The position numbers were made by a program, and so were the translations under genes. The notes beneath the pieces were generated by a model. The model ran no database searches and was not told the origin of the DNA. It saw only the letters and a program-made list of their open reading frames with translations. Shown in pieces: positions 56,712-63,985 of a DNA stretch of 64,000 nt; position 1 is the stretch's first letter; each line of letters opens with the position of its first letter. Source of the DNA: an uncultured Alphaproteobacteria bacterium (GTDB lineage Bacteria; Pseudomonadota; Alphaproteobacteria; Acetobacterales; Acetobacteraceae). The stretch spans positions 2,829,101-2,893,100 of the forward strand of contig OY968826.1 in assembly GCA_963696195.1 (NCBI GenBank). Reading direction: 5' to 3'.

Positions 56712-56788
56712 GCACCCGTAGCTCAACTGGATAGAGCACCAGACTACGAATCTGGGGGTTAGGGGTTCGACTCCCTTCGGGTGCGCCA
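56712..56788 (+). tRNA. tRNA-Arg (ACG)
   Basis: GCACCCG acceptor stem / CGGGTGC-G-CCA, anticodon arm CCAGA-CT-ACG-AA-TCTGG, GTTCGA T-loop. Confidence 0.96.
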
Positions 56789-57012
56789 TTATCTCCTTCA
56801 AACATAAGAGTTTTTTGGACGGGCGCAGAGCGCGCCACGCGGTGCCGCCGCTTCTGCCCACCACAATCCCCTCGACGGCCCCATTTCGCCGCCGGTCGCC
56901 CGGTGGGACGTGTGCGCGACCGCTGGAGACGTCGCCACGCCCCGTCGTCGCTCACCACTTGACCGCGGCCAGAACTGTTGCCCTCATGGGGTGGATTCCC
57001 GAGGTCCTCCCC

Positions 57013-57870
57013 ATGCTCCCACCCACGTCGATCTTCCGCCGGATGCCCGGCACCCTGGTCCTCTCCCAACGGCGGTTTCTTGGCGCCCTGGCCTACGCGA
57101 GCGACTGCACGGAACTCTCGTTCGAGAGGCTGAAGCAGGCCGCGCGTGCCTACCGCTTGCCCACCTCCGCCGACGGTTACGAAGAGGCTGGGTGGACGCC
57201 GGTGAACCGGCTCAGCATCATCACCGATGCTTGGGCCTGCGTCGATCACCTCAACCGCGCGCGGCAACTTGTGAAGAGGTCCCCGTATGGCAACCCGCGA
57301 CCGCTAGAGGTTGATCCGTTCCTCGCCGCGACGAAGCCCGCCTTGGACATCAGGAACCGGATTCAGCACCTCGACGAGGACATCTTCACCGGCGCGAATT
57401 GCGCCGAAGGGAATCCGGTGCTGGGCGCAGTGTCTTGGGCGGACGCCCGCATCCTTGGGGGTCACCTTCGGTACTCAATTTCATCTGGCCCATCAATCGA
57501 CGGCGGACGCATGGCCGGTACGCAGCTCGCCGATGTGGACGGTGCCGGTGACGTCCTGGACTTCGCGCTCAAGGCGGCGGATCAGACCATACATCTGGAC
57601 GAGACCGTGAAAGCTCTGGCCGCCTTCATGGCCGCGTTCGAGGTGACTGTGGCGCGCGCGGTCACTTCGGGTCTTCGCGAAGCCGCGACACGGCAGGGGG
57701 TGTCGCTCCAAGAACCCCGCCCCCATGGAATCACGGACATGACGATGGCAATGAGGATGAGGCGGAAAGCAGAGGGTGGCTGGGAGTGCGGCAACGGCGA
57801 TGGCTTCGCCTTGGTCGAGGTACCACCCGGTTCTTTCGACATCAGCGAAGCGACCGATGAAGTAGCCTGA
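57013..57870 (+). CDS. Hypothetical protein with HEPN-like Rx4H motif (start uncertain: 56815/56986/57013)
   Basis: Helical N-half with RNRIQH at 57352-57369; GAGGT RBS before ATG 57013. Confidence 0.6.
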   Translation: MLPPTSIFRRMPGTLVLSQRRFLGALAYASDCTELSFERLKQAARAYRLPTSADGYEEAGWTPVNRLSIITDAWACVDHLNRARQLVKRSPYGNPRPLEVDPFLAATKPALDIRNRIQHLDEDIFTGANCAEGNPVLGAVSWADARILGGHLRYSISSGPSIDGGRMAGTQLADVDGAGDVLDFALKAADQTIHLDETVKALAAFMAAFEVTVARAVTSGLREAATRQGVSLQEPRPHGITDMTMAMRMRRKAEGGWECGNGDGFALVEVPPGSFDISEATDEVA

Positions 57871-57882
57871 TGGCTCGGCAGG

Positions 57883-58764
57883 TCAGGTAGTAGGGTTCTC
57901 CTGCAACGCAGCCGAAGCGGAGATCGCCGCAAGCACCCTGGCGAGCGCTTCCGCGAAAGGCCTCGGTGCACCTCCGGGCTCTTCGTCTTCCCAACCGCCC
58001 CGCGCCAGATTCCGGGCGCTCGCGACGGTATGCCGGAGTTGGGCCAATTTCAGGCGGAGATCGAGGAAAGGGTCCCACGCTGCTTCCCGGGTCACCGCCT
58101 CCGGGAATGCCTCCTCTCCGAACGGGTCGTCGGGGTCGTAGGGGTCTTCTTCGAGCCGCTCGGAATTCCGCGCGGTGTAGTCGGTGCGCAAGGCTCTGTG
58201 AGAGGACAGTTGCGCTGCGGCCTCAAGAACTGCATCTGCGCGCAACGCCAGTTGGGTCCCGAACTCTCTTCTCGCCGAGAGCGCCTCGACATGGGCGCCG
58301 ATCACGGTTTCCACTTCGGCCTTCCGGTACATGATCTCCGCACCACTGAAGCGAAGAACCGGGAGACCAGTCTGCACGCGGATCGTTCGTTCGCGCTCAC
58401 GATCTGCTCTGATCTGCTCTGCGTTCTCGGCGTGCCCAATTCGACCGTCACACTCCACGAAGAATGCGAAGCCGGAGAGCTGTGTTACCCCACGAACAGC
58501 GCCAGGGTCGGCACAGACCACCATGAAATCGATTCGGTACTGGCCCACCCAGACTTGTGGGAAGACGATCAACTGGCTGCGAAGGATTACAGCAGGCTCC
58601 TCGGCCATGCCGGTGAGCGCCTCCCGCCAGCCAGGAGCGCGGGCGAACAGCGCGCGGGTGTTCGTACCTGGGCCTCCTTCCAGAATCCGGGCCAAGAGGT
58701 CTTCGGCGGGCGATTCCAGAAGGAGACCTACTGGTGACCATCTTGAGAGAAGTTCGAGACCCAT
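57883..58764 (-). CDS. DUF559/Vsr-like PD-(D/E)xK endonuclease-domain protein with helical C-terminal extension
   Basis: ESPAE, PQVWVGQYRIDF, FVECDG..H, DRERER, VLRFSGAEI. Confidence 0.78.
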   Translation of the reverse strand: MGLELLSRWSPVGLLLESPAEDLLARILEGGPGTNTRALFARAPGWREALTGMAEEPAVILRSQLIVFPQVWVGQYRIDFMVVCADPGAVRGVTQLSGFAFFVECDGRIGHAENAEQIRADRERERTIRVQTGLPVLRFSGAEIMYRKAEVETVIGAHVEALSARREFGTQLALRADAVLEAAAQLSSHRALRTDYTARNSERLEEDPYDPDDPFGEEAFPEAVTREAAWDPFLDLRLKLAQLRHTVASARNLARGGWEDEEPGGAPRPFAEALARVLAAISASAALQENPTT

Positions 58765-58899
58765 TGGAATCCTTGTCGACGCGAGGAAAATCAGAAGCGG
58801 GTGAGTGTCGAACCTAGAGCCGAACCTTCGAGTCGCCTATTCCTCTTTCTGGTTGGTCACTTCCGGACCGAAGACGGCTTGTGGAATTCTTCTCGTTGC

Positions 58900-59169
58900 T
58901 CAACCGGGCTTCCGCCGCTTCCGCCCCGCCGGCAGCGACGGCGGGGCATCGCCCTCCGGCCCGGGGTCGGCGAACAGCGCCGCGATCTCCACGCCCAGCG
59001 CCGCCGCTATCCGCTCCAGCACAGTGACGGTGGGGTTCTCCAGCTTCCTCTCGATCCGGCTCATGTAGGTCCGGTCAACCCCGGCGTCGACGGCGAACGT
59101 CTCCTGCGAGACGCCGCGCGCGACGCGCAGCCGCCTGATGTTCACCGCAACTTTTTCCCGCGCGTCCAT
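58900..59169 (-). CDS. XRE-family HTH transcriptional regulator
   Basis: NIRRLRVARGVSQETFA..VDRTYMSRIER..NPTVTVLERIAAAL. Confidence 0.92.
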   Translation of the reverse strand: MDAREKVAVNIRRLRVARGVSQETFAVDAGVDRTYMSRIERKLENPTVTVLERIAAALGVEIAALFADPGPEGDAPPSLPAGRKRRKPG

Positions 59170-59179
59170 GACGGAGCGA

Positions 59180-59217
59180 GCACATATTGTGCAGGCCTAT
59201 TATTCCACGCATAATAG
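59180..59217. promoter_or_regulatory. Two palindromes in the 52-bp divergent intergenic region
   Basis: GCACA-TAT-TGTGC (59180-59192) and CTATTAT-N7-ATAATAG (59197-59217). Confidence 0.55.
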
Positions 59218-59221
59218 ACCC

Positions 59222-59542
59222 ATGATTACGTGGAACGGCACAGAAATCGGAACCTGGCACTGGTGGATGGCGGTATTGGCCGCGGCATGCACCACGATTC
59301 CGCCGGCCGCCCGCCTCGCGGGGCTGGCAGCGCTCGGCGTCCTGCTGGGGCTCCTCCCCGCGAACCGGCTGCTCACGCGCCTGGGACTGCGGCGCTGGCG
59401 GCTGGCTGCGCTGTTCCTGCCCGGCATCGGGCCGCTCGTCTTCATGTGGCTGGTCGCGTTCTCCGGCGCCCACGACCAAGACGCTCCCGATACCGAACGC
59501 GATGGAAGCGACCTCGGCATGTTGCCCCAGCAGCAGGGCTGA
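59222..59542 (+). CDS. Small hypothetical membrane protein
   Basis: 106 aa, three hydrophobic segments, LFLPGIGPLVFMWLVAF, acidic tail. Confidence 0.55.
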   Translation: MITWNGTEIGTWHWWMAVLAAACTTIPPAARLAGLAALGVLLGLLPANRLLTRLGLRRWRLAALFLPGIGPLVFMWLVAFSGAHDQDAPDTERDGSDLGMLPQQQG

Positions 59543-59610
59543 CGCGGCGAGGAAAAAACGAGGGCGCCCCAACGGCGCACCGGGCGGAGATGCCCAGCGC
59601 GCCGCTTCGA

Positions 59611-59871
59611 TTACATTGCCGGCAATGGCCCGCCGGCCAGCCACGCCCACATGGCCCAGACGCCGGCGGCGGTGAGGATGACGTCGAGTTGGGGGGCAAG
59701 ATGCAGCTCGATCTCGGCGCCGAGCAGCGCCATGGCCGGCGGCAGCATCAGGACGATTTTCACGATGGTCGGCAGGCGGCGCCAGAGGCGCGAGGTCACT
59801 GACCCGGCGGGCGCTGGTACGCCACTCCGCGGACGCACCTCGGTGGCAGCAGACTTTTTCTCTTTCTTCAT
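59611..59871 (-). CDS. Small hypothetical two-TM protein
   Basis: Basic N-terminus MKKEKK then two hydrophobic helices. Confidence 0.45.
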   Translation of the reverse strand: MKKEKKSAATEVRPRSGVPAPAGSVTSRLWRRLPTIVKIVLMLPPAMALLGAEIELHLAPQLDVILTAAGVWAMWAWLAGGPLPAM

Positions 59872-59993
59872 AGTGGTTCCTTTCAAAATAGAGCGTCAGA
59901 ATGTCACTGGAGATCAGAATCAAGCATCCACAGGTCGATTCTTTCTTGACCCGCGGGGACGGGAGCTGTACGTAATTTTGACCTCAAGATCAC

Positions 59994-60477: not shown

Positions 60478-61761
60478 TCACGCCGCGTTCTGCACCTGCA
60501 CCTCCACCACCTCGGGCTCGGGTAGCAGGTTCCATGCCCGCAGCGCGATCGTTGCGGTATCGATCAGCCGCTGCGGGGCATGGTGCGCGTACCTCTGGGT
60601 CGTCGAGAGCTGGCTGTGACCCAGAACCGTTCCGATCTCGTTCAGCGGCGTGCCGGCGTTGGCCAGCGCGGACGCGAACGAGTGCCTCAAATCGTGGATG
60701 CGCAGGTCCTCGGGCAGTCCCGCCGCCTCCCTCGCCCGCCGCCACGCGCCGCGTATCCCCTCCACCGCCCTGTCCGGCCGGCGGGCGCTGGGGAAGACGT
60801 ACGGGTTGCCCGGGTGGAGCTGACGCTTGGCGAGCTGGCGCTGGAGGATCGTCACGGCCAGGGCCGAGAGCGGTACGTGCCGCGTGCGGCCGGACTTGGA
60901 CCGGGGCACGGTGAGCAGCCCGCGCTCCAGGTCCACGTTCTCCCACTTCGCCTTCAGCGCCTCGCCCCGGCGGGCGCCGGTGACGGCGAGCAGCATCAGC
61001 ACCGACGCGGCGGTCTCGTCCGGGTCGGCGGCCAGCGCGCGGAAGAGCGCCTGGGTCTCAGGCGCGCTCAGGTACTTGTCCCGGTGGACCTCGCGCAGCA
61101 TCCCGGGCGAGCTCGCCGGGTTCTTGCCCGCGTACAACTCCCATTTCGTTGCGAGATTGAACATCGCCCGCAACGTCGCCAAGTGCCGGTTGACCGTGCC
61201 GTTCGCCAAGCCCTCCGCCACCATCCTGCGCCGCAGCTCAGCGACATCTTGCGGTGTCACCTCGTCCAACGCCTTCTTGCCCAGGGCGGGCAGGATGCGC
61301 TTGCGCAGGTAGGCCTCGACGTTGTGCGCGGCGCGCTGAGTCTCGCGCGCGTGCGGCAGATATCGATCCTTGGCGAATTCATTGAGCGTAGGCACGGCCT
61401 TGAGCTTTGCCTTCTCCGCCGCCGGGTCGCCGCCCAGGCTGACCTCGGCCTTGAGCTGCTCGGCGCGCTTGCGGGCCTGGTCGACGGTGACGTCGCCCAG
61501 CCGGCCGAGCCGGACTTCGTGCTGGCGGCCGCGGGCATCCTTGTACCGGAAGTAGAACGTTACGGTGGTCCGGCGCTGCTCGGCGATGAAGCCGACCAGC
61601 CGGTCGTCGAAGAGACGGTGCTTGGCTGCGCCCGCCGACAGCGGGGGCAGCTTCTGCAATAGCGTGCGGGTGAGTGTGATGGCGGCCATTTGGCTCCTCT
61701 GCTGGGTGGTGCTGGTTGGATTGGAATTGGGCGTGGGGGTCATAGGGGGCATCGGCCGCAC
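60478..61761 (-). CDS. int: Tyrosine integrase with N-terminal arm-binding domain (true start may be 61682)
   Basis: LFDDRLVGF..FYFRY..VRLG (arm-binding), TGARRGE, HDLRHS, LGHSQLSTTQRY. Confidence 0.95.
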   Translation of the reverse strand: MRPMPPMTPTPNSNPTSTTQQRSQMAAITLTRTLLQKLPPLSAGAAKHRLFDDRLVGFIAEQRRTTVTFYFRYKDARGRQHEVRLGRLGDVTVDQARKRAEQLKAEVSLGGDPAAEKAKLKAVPTLNEFAKDRYLPHARETQRAAHNVEAYLRKRILPALGKKALDEVTPQDVAELRRRMVAEGLANGTVNRHLATLRAMFNLATKWELYAGKNPASSPGMLREVHRDKYLSAPETQALFRALAADPDETAASVLMLLAVTGARRGEALKAKWENVDLERGLLTVPRSKSGRTRHVPLSALAVTILQRQLAKRQLHPGNPYVFPSARRPDRAVEGIRGAWRRAREAAGLPEDLRIHDLRHSFASALANAGTPLNEIGTVLGHSQLSTTQRYAHHAPQRLIDTATIALRAWNLLPEPEVVEVQVQNAA

Positions 61762-61775
61762 CCGGGGCGCGGCGC

Positions 61776-62012
61776 CTACCCCGCCGTGCTGTGGCGGCGG
61801 TTCATCAGGATGAATGCGTCCAAGTCCTCGTTCCGGTACCGGACGTACTTTTCGGAGAGCTTGACGTAGGCTGGCCCTTCGCCCGTGCCGCGCCAGCGCT
61901 CCAGGAAGCTGGGCGGGACGTTCAAGCGCTCGGCGGCTTGCTGCGCGGTCAGCAGCGGCTGACGCTCTTGGGTTTCGGCGGTGGTGTCATCGGCATTGCT
62001 TTGCTGGGTCAT
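61776..62012 (-). CDS. Excisionase/AlpA-like HTH (HTH_17 type)
   Basis: LLTAQQAAERLNV..LERWR..GEGPAYVKL..VRY..DLDAF; directly upstream of int. Confidence 0.85.
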   Translation of the reverse strand: MTQQSNADDTTAETQERQPLLTAQQAAERLNVPPSFLERWRGTGEGPAYVKLSEKYVRYRNEDLDAFILMNRRHSTAG

Positions 62013-62177
62013 GCTGGGTCTCCACGTTCGGGCGCCGGTGGCGGTCATGCCCCGGCTTCGCCCATGGAAATGTTCGGTGGCCGTCCTTGGCCGTCGAAGG
62101 TCGTGCTTCGCCCGCCGTCGCCGGCACCACGCGGACAGCCGGACGGGCCAAAGCCCATCCGGCGCGTTGGCGATTCT

Positions 62178-62828
62178 TCAGCTTGGCTCCTCGGAGTTTG
62201 CCGAATCAGGCTCGCCAGAGGATTCCGCGACGACGCGCGCGATCCGCACGCGGCGAATCTCGGCGGCGAGGGCCTCGCGCACGGCGTTGCGGCAGGACCA
62301 GAGCCGGGAGATGTACGGCGCCCGCTCCGCCCAGTCCCGCAGCGCCTCGTCCGCAACGATGATGATCTGCTCAGGCACGATACCTTCCTGGCGACTCTCG
62401 GGATCGGGGCAGAGCTCGATCGCCAGATCGCCGCACCGCGCCACCGTCCAGCGGTAGGGAGAGGGCTGGCCGCCGGGGCAGAACTCCACCCCGGCGCCGA
62501 GAGGCTCGCCCGCCTGCAACTGCCGGACCGCCCGGCCGAGCGCCTCCAGCACGGCGAGGGCGCCGCCATCCGGCATCCGCGCGTGTTCCAGGGCCATGCG
62601 CGCCTGCGCCACGAGGATCAACTGGCGCAAGGTCCAGCCCGCCGGCGCGGTGCAGACAGTGCCGTATCGCACCGGCAGGCCGAAGCCGTCGCCGCCGGTG
62701 TCCAGCATCGCCACCCAGAATTTCTGCTCCCAGAACGGCAGTACATCGGCGTTGGTGAACAGCACGAACCGCTCGCCGTCTCCGGTGCGGCGCACGGCGA
62801 CGATGGATTTCTCATCGAAGTCGATCAT
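62178..62828 (-). CDS. Hypothetical protein, internally duplicated, paralog of 63401-63985
   Basis: ATGA overlap with upstream stop; internal repeat GWTLRQLILVA / GIVPEQIIIVA. Confidence 0.7.
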   Translation of the reverse strand: MIDFDEKSIVAVRRTGDGERFVLFTNADVLPFWEQKFWVAMLDTGGDGFGLPVRYGTVCTAPAGWTLRQLILVAQARMALEHARMPDGGALAVLEALGRAVRQLQAGEPLGAGVEFCPGGQPSPYRWTVARCGDLAIELCPDPESRQEGIVPEQIIIVADEALRDWAERAPYISRLWSCRNAVREALAAEIRRVRIARVVAESSGEPDSANSEEPS

Positions 62829-63202
62829 CGGCGTGCCTCTCCTTTGGAGCTCGAAGCAGGCGACGCGGTGTCGGCGGCCGGGACCGTTTCGGTTCCGTCC
62901 GCCTCGGCTTGATCGATCTCGAACACCAGCCACAAATCGTCGCTTTCGATGGATACAGCCACGCCCTCAGGAATTCGGAAGGCGTTGATCTCCTCCTCGT
63001 CGGGATCGTCGTTGAGGCGGAACAGGTCGGCCGGCTCGCGCACCGCGATGCCGAGCGTGCCGAAATACTTGACGATGCTGAGCGGGTCTTCGCCGGTGCG
63101 GACGGCATCGTCGAATTTGATCCGCTGCACGTCTTGCAATTTCTCGACGCTGGAGAAGCGCCGCAGCAACTCCTCCAGCGTCTGGGTTTCGTATTGGTCC
63201 AT
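62825..63202 (-). CDS. Small highly acidic hypothetical protein
   Basis: 125 aa; by hand count 29 D/E vs 13 K/R; GGAG RBS before ATG 63202. Confidence 0.65.
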   Translation of the reverse strand: MDQYETQTLEELLRRFSSVEKLQDVQRIKFDDAVRTGEDPLSIVKYFGTLGIAVREPADLFRLNDDPDEEEINAFRIPEGVAVSIESDDLWLVFEIDQAEADGTETVPAADTASPASSSKGEARR

Positions 63203-63220
63203 GTGATGGGGCTCCAGACG

Positions 63221-63254
63221 CAGGAAGCCCCGCCTTTGCGGGCGGGGCTTCCTG
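63221..63254. other. Perfect 14-bp hairpin just upstream of the RBS of the acidic-protein gene
   Basis: CAGGAAGCCCCGCC-TTTGCG-GGCGGGGCTTCCTG. Confidence 0.75.
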
Positions 63255-63400
63255 CTCGTTCGGGGTGGGTGGAACGCCCTGGCCTGTAGTGGCCTGGGCG
63301 AGAGCATCACATGCGGCCGTGTGGCGGCGCCGATGCGCCACGGGACACCGGGCACACCCCTTCATCCATGATGAAAGAAGTAACCAGGCGGTCGGCCGGT

Positions 63401-63985
63401 TCAGCCCAGCTCCGGCTCCCCGTCGCAGTCGGCGACATGCGCCGCCCACCGCGCCTTCGCCCTCGCGGCTTCCAGGGCCAGCGCCGCGCGAACCTCGCGC
63501 CGTGCTTCCCAACTACTCCGCCGCCAGGGCGTGACCGGCAGCCAACTGGTCAGCGCCATTTCGATCACGACCAAAAGTTGCTCAGGCACCACGCCACGCT
63601 GCCGCGCCTCCGCATCCGGGCACAAGACAATCGAGAACGGCCCCGCCCTGGCCACGGTCCAAGGGAAGGGTGACGACACCCCGCCCGGCGGCGCCGGCTC
63701 GAAGGCGACCGGCGGCACCGCCCAACCCGCCTGGGGCTCTCGGTGCACGGCGGCGGCGCTGTCCAGATGGCGCACGATCTCGGCCAGGATGGGCTCGCCG
63801 GAATGCGCCAGCTCGGCCTCGAACCTGGCCAGCGTCACGCTAAGAAGCTGGCCGACGGCCCAGCCATCGTACGGGCCGAGGATGGCGAGGCGGATGAACA
63901 CGCCGCCGTCAGGAATCTCGACCGCCGCGCCCCACAGGCGCGGCGGCCTGCCCGGGATCAGGTCGGTGGTGATAAGCGCGACCAT
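63401..63985 (-). CDS. Hypothetical protein, internally duplicated, paralog of 62178-62828
   Basis: SPFPWTVARAG..IVLCPDAEARQRGVVPEQLLVV matches SPYRWTVARCG..IELCPDPESRQEGIVPEQIIIV. Confidence 0.7.
   Translation of the reverse strand: MVALITTDLIPGRPPRLWGAAVEIPDGGVFIRLAILGPYDGWAVGQLLSVTLARFEAELAHSGEPILAEIVRHLDSAAAVHREPQAGWAVPPVAFEPAPPGGVSSPFPWTVARAGPFSIVLCPDAEARQRGVVPEQLLVVIEMALTSWLPVTPWRRSSWEARREVRAALALEAARAKARWAAHVADCDGEPELG

Follow-up and report, generated by a model that had tools for sequence, protein, structure and literature searches.

The window analysed here (64,000 nucleotides (nt); G000:C1:2829101-2893100) is part of the single-contig 2.91-Mb genome of an uncultured member of the Acetobacteraceae. 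Near its end lies a block of genes with the order M2-B-M1-A-alpA-int, in which int comes last and which is divergent from the replication gene of the island that holds it. A and B encode paralogous proteins, each preceded by a gene for a small acidic protein (M1 for A and M2 for B). The four genes M2-B-M1-A form a conserved, confidently folded and unannotated module, which is the subject of this study. The features are listed in Table 1, where coordinates beyond the window are those of L004, a locus record reaching past the window end (L004:7401 corresponds to window position 63401).

Table 1 Genes, tRNA and repeats of the M2-B-M1-A block and its island (aa, amino acids; pI, isoelectric point)
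Feature	Position	Strand	Remarks
tRNA-Arg(ACG)	56712-56788	plus	integration target
attL-type repeat	56743-56908		166 nt, begins inside the 3' part of tRNA-Arg(ACG)
Tyrosine integrase (int)	60478-61761	minus	Arm-DNA-bind_3 and Phage_integrase; PF00589, E-value 7e-36
AlpA/Xis-type HTH_17 protein (alpA)	61776-62048	minus	directly downstream of A; PF12728, E-value 2e-9
Paralogue A (P0001)	62178-62828	minus	216 aa from ATG, pI 4.85
M1, partner of A	62825-63202	minus	125 aa, pI 4.17, orphan
Paralogue B	63401 to beyond 64000 (L004:7401-8051/8069)	minus	truncated by the window end
M2, partner of B	L004:8048-8362, outside the window	minus	~104 aa
Type IIG/ISP restriction-modification enzyme	L004:11415-14798 (~67415-70798 window-equivalent)	minus	main cargo, 1127 aa, single chain
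Distal att repeat copy	L004:15707-15872, outside the window		88 % identical to the attL-type repeat, ~15 kb away

Two coupled gene pairs and their relatives

When A and B were compared using BLASTP, they shared 35 % identity across 168 aa (E-value 1e-21), and the strict motif G-x4-Q-[LI][LI]-x-V was found twice in each protein, at residues 64 and 149 of A and residues 69 and 159 of B. A first-pass annotation, made from the DNA letters and their translations, had called the two open reading frames (ORFs) paralogous and had placed the motif twice in each, and both points are borne out. Shuffled versions of A contain the strict motif at least once in just 0.1 % of trials; among 115 family members, two strict copies are present in 28 and two relaxed copies in 70. 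The 194 aa given to B in that annotation results from truncation at the window end, as the frame stays open to ~64051-64069 (window-equivalent) and the ORF runs on to ~216-222 aa (a 222-aa ORF lies at L004:7401-8069, and one database record has 212 aa). The likeliest length of B is ~216 aa, the same as that of A, because its start would then overlap the stop codon of the upstream gene in an ATGA.

Each paralogue is translationally coupled to its small acidic orphan partner. ATGA stop/start overlaps are found at both junctions (the TGA of M1 with the ATG of A, and M2 with the start of B), and an AAGGAG-like Shine-Dalgarno sequence precedes the start of A. M1 is strongly acidic (29 Asp and Glu residues in the whole protein) and its family has the invariant signature DPL...EEE...G.A...D..W..F. 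M2 is a paralogue of M1, with 36-46 % identity when the locus proteins were compared with nine related loci using tblastn. The duplicated unit is the two-gene M-A pair, present here in tandem; neither the partner genes nor the duplication of the whole unit had been described in the first-pass annotation. No match was found for M1 in Pfam, PHROGs, NCBIfam, PADLOC or PDB, and M2 matched no family in Pfam, NCBIfam or PADLOC. The possibility that M is a third lobe was rejected, as M is unrelated to A or Tad1 (hhalign P 0.35). A, B and the M proteins are all acidic, with pI values of 4.2-5.8. A sigma-70 promoter scan of the locus region (69 % GC) found no promoter, and the public sequencing runs containing the locus are DNA metagenomes only.

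A single-protein search for related DNA returned seven loci. The double pair was found next to xis-int in nine loci (L007, L008, L023-L026, L028-L029 and L030). In the nine close loci compared using tblastn, the identity to A (70-89 %) tracks that of Int (67-84 %). In L027, M1, A, alpA and int are present with a fragment of B, and M2 is absent. Two further loci (L031 and an ENA contig known as gene calls only) carry a single pair, with 42-48 % identity to A. In these, the M-A pair is followed by a 58-61-aa gene and then the integrase, and is divergent from an operon of ParA and a 76-aa gene. One M-A pair is likely the ancestral state, because the more divergent relatives carry one pair. A DUF5906 primase-like gene lies near the single-pair elements, and L031 also contains a group II intron reverse transcriptase and an IS91 transposase.

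The block is retained in related islands that insert at tRNA genes and are self-replicating. The position of AlpA/Xis immediately after A is kept in the relatives, while the replication module varies (AAA_25 here and in L007, DNA_pol_A in L008 and L030, ParA with DUF5906 in the single-pair loci). The cargo varies as well, including Type I restriction-modification (R-M) systems in L008 and L030 and a WYL/BrxR-like gene, and M-A stays beside xis-int. No virion genes were found in the 11 loci read as DNA or in the one seen as gene calls; all are integrase islands.

The A/B family is tiny, accessory and carried on mobile elements. It comprises 89 and 42 clusters at 90 % identity, with 37 representatives among 1.84 billion proteins, and all named homologues come from Acidocella or from acidic-habitat metagenomes. 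Nine of the 41 species of the genus have it, with A-type and B-type proteins side by side wherever the match is full-length. Genes of CD-NTases (cGAS/DncV-like nucleotidyltransferases; SMODS) occur in six of these 41 species, this genome included. The SMODS match here (G000:C1:2138554-2138904) scores 36.7 bits, slightly above the Pfam cut-off, in a 224-aa frame, and the genome may thus have a signalling enzyme of the CBASS type (cyclic oligonucleotide-based antiphage signalling system).

Predicted fold and comparison with Tad1

A full-length AlphaFold model of A, built from 46 family sequences, was confident, with a predicted local distance difference test score (pLDDT) of 92.5 and a predicted template modelling score (pTM) of 0.89. 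The predicted N lobe consists of strands E9-14, E21-25, E39-43 and E48-54 and helices H67-84 and H90-103; the predicted C lobe consists of strands E115-117, E129-132 and E135-139 and helices H152-169 and H174-204. A and B are predicted to be single chains of two repeated lobes, each a beta-meander followed by a helical hairpin. The internal duplication proposed earlier from the motif is visible in the model as two successive units of this kind, and the N and C halves match each other weakly in hhalign (P 0.012, probability 3.7 %). No motif in A looks catalytic, and the residues invariant in it are for the most part structural Gly, Ala and Trp.

The signal sponges Tad1, Tad2, Acb2, Acb4 and Sequestin have so far been known mainly as short homo-oligomeric phage proteins. 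Tad1 (Thoeris anti-defence 1) is represented by the Pfam family PF24729 (Acb2_Tad1_hairpin) and by PDB entries 7UAV, 7UAW, 8SMD and 8KBB-8KBH. The first-pass annotation had given a Tad1 core and aligned both ORFs to it. The core given there is letter-perfect (7uav_A residues 64-111, E-value 7e-28), and the alignment was reproduced for A, whose C-terminal hairpin (residues 147-194) matches the core in BLASTP with 29 % identity and one gap on each side (E-value 0.003 as a single comparison). The Smith-Waterman score of A against the core is 44, compared with 24.1 +/- 4.0 in shuffles, and none of 2000 shuffles reached 44 (z ~5). For B the alignment did not hold beyond the first helix (Smith-Waterman p 0.035), and BLASTP gave a mere six-residue match elsewhere in the protein (E-value 0.09).

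When the A/B family was compared using hhalign with a Tad1 alignment assembled from nine phage homologues, P was 0.0047 over 62 columns. The N lobe (P 0.0028) and the C lobe (P 0.002) each aligned to the Tad1 hairpin in the identical register, while control runs gave P 0.2-0.6 for reversed Tad1 and, as noted above, no relation for the M family. A Tad1 HMM (hidden Markov model) scored above 0 bits on 65 of the 115 family members (maximum 8.9), compared with one of 115 reversed sequences. The Tad1 resemblance claimed earlier is thus real, with the same register in both lobes, and falls short of significance at the level of database searches by sequence or profile. Matches of single proteins and profiles in PDB sequences to a lectin, AcrIIC1, VP24 and a nitroreductase were rejected as noise (all E-values >0.05).

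The Tad1 core was also observed in the C-terminal domain of gp184 of Pseudomonas phage phiKZ (L022:197-886; PDB 8y6v) and its jumbo-phage relatives. The gp184 protein shares 34 % identity with the core of CbTad1 (phmmer E-value 7e-4 to the 48-mer); these proteins have a ~100-aa extra N-terminal region and are annotated as structural or hypothetical.

The C lobe of A (residues 106-204) was modelled alone with a pLDDT of 79. When this model was compared with PDB using Foldseek, the first of 350,542 chains was Tad1 (7uav_C; E-value 0.15, probability 0.77, TMq 0.47, where TM denotes template modelling score, 110 columns, 18 % identity). CbTad1 or CmTad1 chains took 20 of the 50 top places, with ~65-110 columns (many ~100) covering sheet and hairpin, E-values of 0.15-2, TM 0.46-0.50 and a root-mean-square deviation of 4.5-9.7 A. 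The other matches were 59-60-column helical hairpins of ribosomal proteins. A blind search across PDB with the C lobe reached a family that had been specified beforehand, and sequence and structure agree in register. The full-length model gave a best E-value of 0.006 (TM 0.23) in BFVD, with nothing at E-values <=0.001; its matches to Dps, ferritin and copper storage proteins are generic helical bundles and were rejected as relatives.

The published Tad1 protomer consists of an N-terminal antiparallel beta-sheet and the C-terminal helices alpha1 and alpha2 (10.1101/2023.11.15.567273), and the predicted topology of both lobes agrees with it. In each lobe of A and B an antiparallel sheet is predicted to be followed by a two-helix hairpin, which aligns with that of Tad1 end to end and with the loop in register. 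The shared residues are a Gly at the start of helix 1, an LL in helix 1, an Ala in helix 2, the equivalent of Arg109 and an aromatic at the position of Phe82. Thus, the Tad1-invariant G65 of CbTad1 is matched by G149 of A and by G64 in the N lobe, and the Tad1-invariant A102 by A186 and by A100 in the N lobe. R109, likewise invariant in Tad1, corresponds to R193, which is invariant across the A/B family. G64/G149, A100/A186 and R193 are invariant or near-invariant in the A/B family and coincide with the Tad1 invariants.

In CbTad1, the pocket for gcADPR (glycocyclic ADP-ribose) and cyclic dinucleotides is formed by F82, N92, R109 and R113, and that for cyclic trinucleotides by R90 and T97 (10.1101/2023.11.15.567273). 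F82 aligns with W166 of A, which is aromatic in A and B and not in divergent members. R90 and T97 are just partly matched in A, and the N lobe of A lacks the Arg pair. Judged from the alignment, the scaffold-defining positions of Tad1 are shared and the ligand-specific ones in part only.

A and B also differ from the known sponges. Tad1 has protomers of ~120-140 aa that form a homo-hexamer with interface pockets, whereas A and B have ~216 aa with two lobes fused in one chain. They have no PF24729 match, Asn92 is replaced and R113 is unaligned. Tad1 is encoded in phages and prophages, whereas the genes of A and B lead the xis-int operon of a tRNA-integrating island in the chromosome, each always accompanied by the gene of an acidic partner protein. 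The hairpin domain is common to Acb2 and Tad1, and an Acb2/Tad1-hairpin protein is among the weak BFVD matches of A. Neither a sequence match nor a significant structural match links A and B to Acb2, Tad2, Acb4 or Sequestin; these are homo-oligomers with positively charged interface pockets, whereas A and B would be pseudo-oligomers within one net-acidic chain.

Possible roles of the module

The reading which we favour, still tentatively, is that A and B are Tad1-like two-lobed proteins that bind a small ligand on behalf of the island, as a sponge or as a sensor. Its parts differ in strength: each lobe probably has a Tad1-like fold, true homology of the lobes to Tad1 is about an even chance, and a sponge function of A and B is unproven. 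Homology, ligand binding and every functional step of this reading are what we infer from the comparisons above. One A or B chain would imitate a Tad1 dimer, with each lobe in the topology of one protomer. The pockets of known sponges arise at protomer interfaces (10.1101/2025.07.12.664507), and a fused pseudo-dimer would recreate such an interface. The hairpin bundle and the sheet of A and B would form a pocket for a small and probably nucleotide-derived ligand. A and B might then sequester a host immune signal (an anti-defence sponge), or they might sense it and couple it to the excision operon, while the partner M might modulate or cap the complex. Published work describes fused sponge domains as well as sponge genes that reside on non-phage mobile elements (10.1101/2025.07.12.664507). 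In addition, islands of this kind move defence cargo between hosts, namely the Type IIG R-M enzyme here and the Type I R-M systems of L008 and L030. The CD-NTase genes in six of the 41 species also speak for this reading.

Several results weigh against this reading. At the level of sequence, A, B and their C halves matched no Pfam family at E-values <=1 or <=10, PF24729 included (the Tad1 core itself gets 35.8 bits). PF24729 searched over the whole genome at E-values <=10 hit five unrelated places, none of them at this locus. A and B had zero matches in PHROGs, NCBIfam and PADLOC, and phmmer and family-profile searches of all PDB sequences returned no Tad1 at E-values <=10. The hhalign probabilities of the family and the lobes against Tad1 are just 7-14 % (7 % for the family), and the P values of single comparisons are optimistic because Tad1 had been singled out beforehand in the first-pass annotation. 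Among the ligand residues, N92 is replaced by L176 or W177 of A, and R113 has no aligned equivalent.

The structural evidence has similar limits. The Foldseek check suggested in the first-pass annotation did place Tad1 first for the C lobe, with an E-value and a TM score that are under the usual same-fold cut-offs and that come from a lobe excised from its context. With the full-length model of A, the best E-value in PDB was 0.38 and Tad1 was not in the top 50, and in BFVD the Acb2/Tad1-hairpin protein was at rank 43 (E-value 1.3).

The sponges known so far are short, form homo-oligomers and have no partner proteins (10.1101/2025.07.12.664507). A and B are twice the size of known sponges, net acidic and always paired with M. 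When 50,697 phage records, 72,556 plasmids and IMG/VR were searched using tblastn, the A/B family was absent from all of them. Across the 41 species of the genus, A/B carriage was not associated with SMODS carriage, with an overlap of one genome. Finally, a role in excision would account for the tight linkage to xis-int just as well.

Because this linkage is strict across differing replication modules, control of excision, with or without a ligand, is a serious rival. It holds that M-A and M2-B regulate island excision and integration, or a switch between integrated and replicating states, through protein-protein contacts or serve these processes as accessory factors, for example as anti-repressor-like or Int/Xis-modulating complexes, and that no nucleotide signal is bound. 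The likeness to Tad1 would then be a shared simple fold of sheet and hairpin. We consider such a nucleotide-independent role nearly as likely as the sponge or sensor, although still doubtful when taken by itself. The pair is always directly upstream of xis/alpA-int on the same strand while the replication/partition module and the cargo change, A diverges in step with Int among the nine close loci, translational coupling suggests stoichiometric complexes, and every Tad1 score is sub-threshold. However, the proteins contain neither a DNA-binding domain nor a known regulator domain, and direct binding of DNA by A, B or M is unlikely because all of them are acidic. Such a role would also leave unexplained why the C lobe finds its best match among PDB structures in Tad1, and why the most conserved positions of the family coincide with Tad1 invariants.

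It is also conceivable, if unlikely, that the resemblance to Tad1 is coincidental and that A and B are a lineage-restricted orphan family with a role outside signalling, excision control and addiction, for example a structural or transfer-related one. The small size of the family and its confinement to Acidocella-like genomes and acidic-habitat metagenomes are in line with this, as is the lack of a significant structural neighbour for the full-length model, and convergence could readily yield a fold as simple as a beta-hairpin plus a helical hairpin. Against it, pairwise, profile-profile and HMM comparisons and the first rank in Foldseek all point to one family in one register.

A toxin-antitoxin-type addiction or abortive-infection module, with the small acidic first gene as antitoxin and the larger second gene as toxin, stabilising the island or defending the host, is highly improbable: what speaks for it is gene layout alone (two genes with ATGA-coupled translation and a small acidic upstream protein, two diverged, non-identical pairs kept, in a mobile island with many defence genes), whereas A, B, M1 and M2 match no toxin, antitoxin or defence family in Pfam, NCBIfam and PADLOC, A is itself acidic and its invariant residues are structural, not catalytic-looking, M has no DNA-binding domain of the sort that typical antitoxins use in autoregulation, and a location within a xis-int operon is unusual for such systems.

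Under an extended form of the favoured ligand-binding reading, which we regard as a long shot, A and B would be the first known case in which descendants of the Tad1 sponge fold are single-chain pseudo-dimers, recruited by a non-phage integrative island; together with their partners they would, beyond blunting defence, read host immune messengers and couple them to the xis-int operon, so that the island excises and replicates under phage attack. The signals would be cyclic oligonucleotides or ADPR-derived (ADPR, ADP-ribose), with a different one recognised by each of the two diverged pairs. If the family is confirmed, the Tad1 fold can fuse into a single-chain pseudo-dimer and gain a partner protein, and its use by chromosomal integrative islands would widen the search space for anti-defence and signal-sensing genes. 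Because the genes always lead the xis-int operon, a connection of immune signalling with island mobility can be put to the test. Should the link to Tad1 fail, M-A is still a conserved, confidently folded and unannotated two-gene island module, and its definition fills an annotation gap.

The surrounding island

The first-pass annotation had assigned the genes to a non-phage-looking element upstream of xis-int, which agrees with the integrase, the HTH_17 protein and the tRNA-Arg repeat found here. The tRNA-Arg(ACG) gene and the 166-nt direct repeat delimit an island of ~15 kb. It has the features that define tRNA-integrating AlpA-integrase islands (PF00589, Arm-DNA-bind_3, PF12728 and a direct repeat at the tRNA 3' end). 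It resembles AlpA/Xis-integrase islands and satellite-like elements with plasmid-type replication (AAA_25 RepA-like, primase, ParA) in its HTH_17 AlpA and Arm-binding tyrosine integrase, its integration at the 3' end of tRNA-Arg with a direct repeat, its divergent replication gene and its defence cargo. Judged from the libraries searched, the known modules of this type lack M-A pairs upstream of alpA, and these pairs are covered by no family in Pfam, NCBIfam or PHROG.

The island contains two orphan or nuclease-like genes, an XRE repressor, the int block, a divergent AAA_25 RepA-like gene and the Type IIG/ISP R-M enzyme (Type_ISP_C E-value 4e-66; PADLOC REase_MTase_IIG, 1282 bits). The first two genes (56815-58764) are convergent and encode a 351-aa orphan and a 293-aa protein. 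The former recurs in L023 with 73 % identity, and the latter has a weak match to REase_MTES_1575 (a DUF559-like nuclease; E-value 1e-5, under the cut-off). The stretch from the R-M gene to the distal att repeat contains two tandem 126-nt copies with 74 % identity (L004:14941-15192).

When the sequence past the distal att repeat (L004:15707-18100) was compared with window positions 56743-59900, a second XRE gene (77 % identical over 272 nt) and pieces of a small membrane-protein gene (~81 %) were observed. The DNA beyond this repeat appears to be left over from a second, related island inserted in tandem at this tRNA-Arg site.

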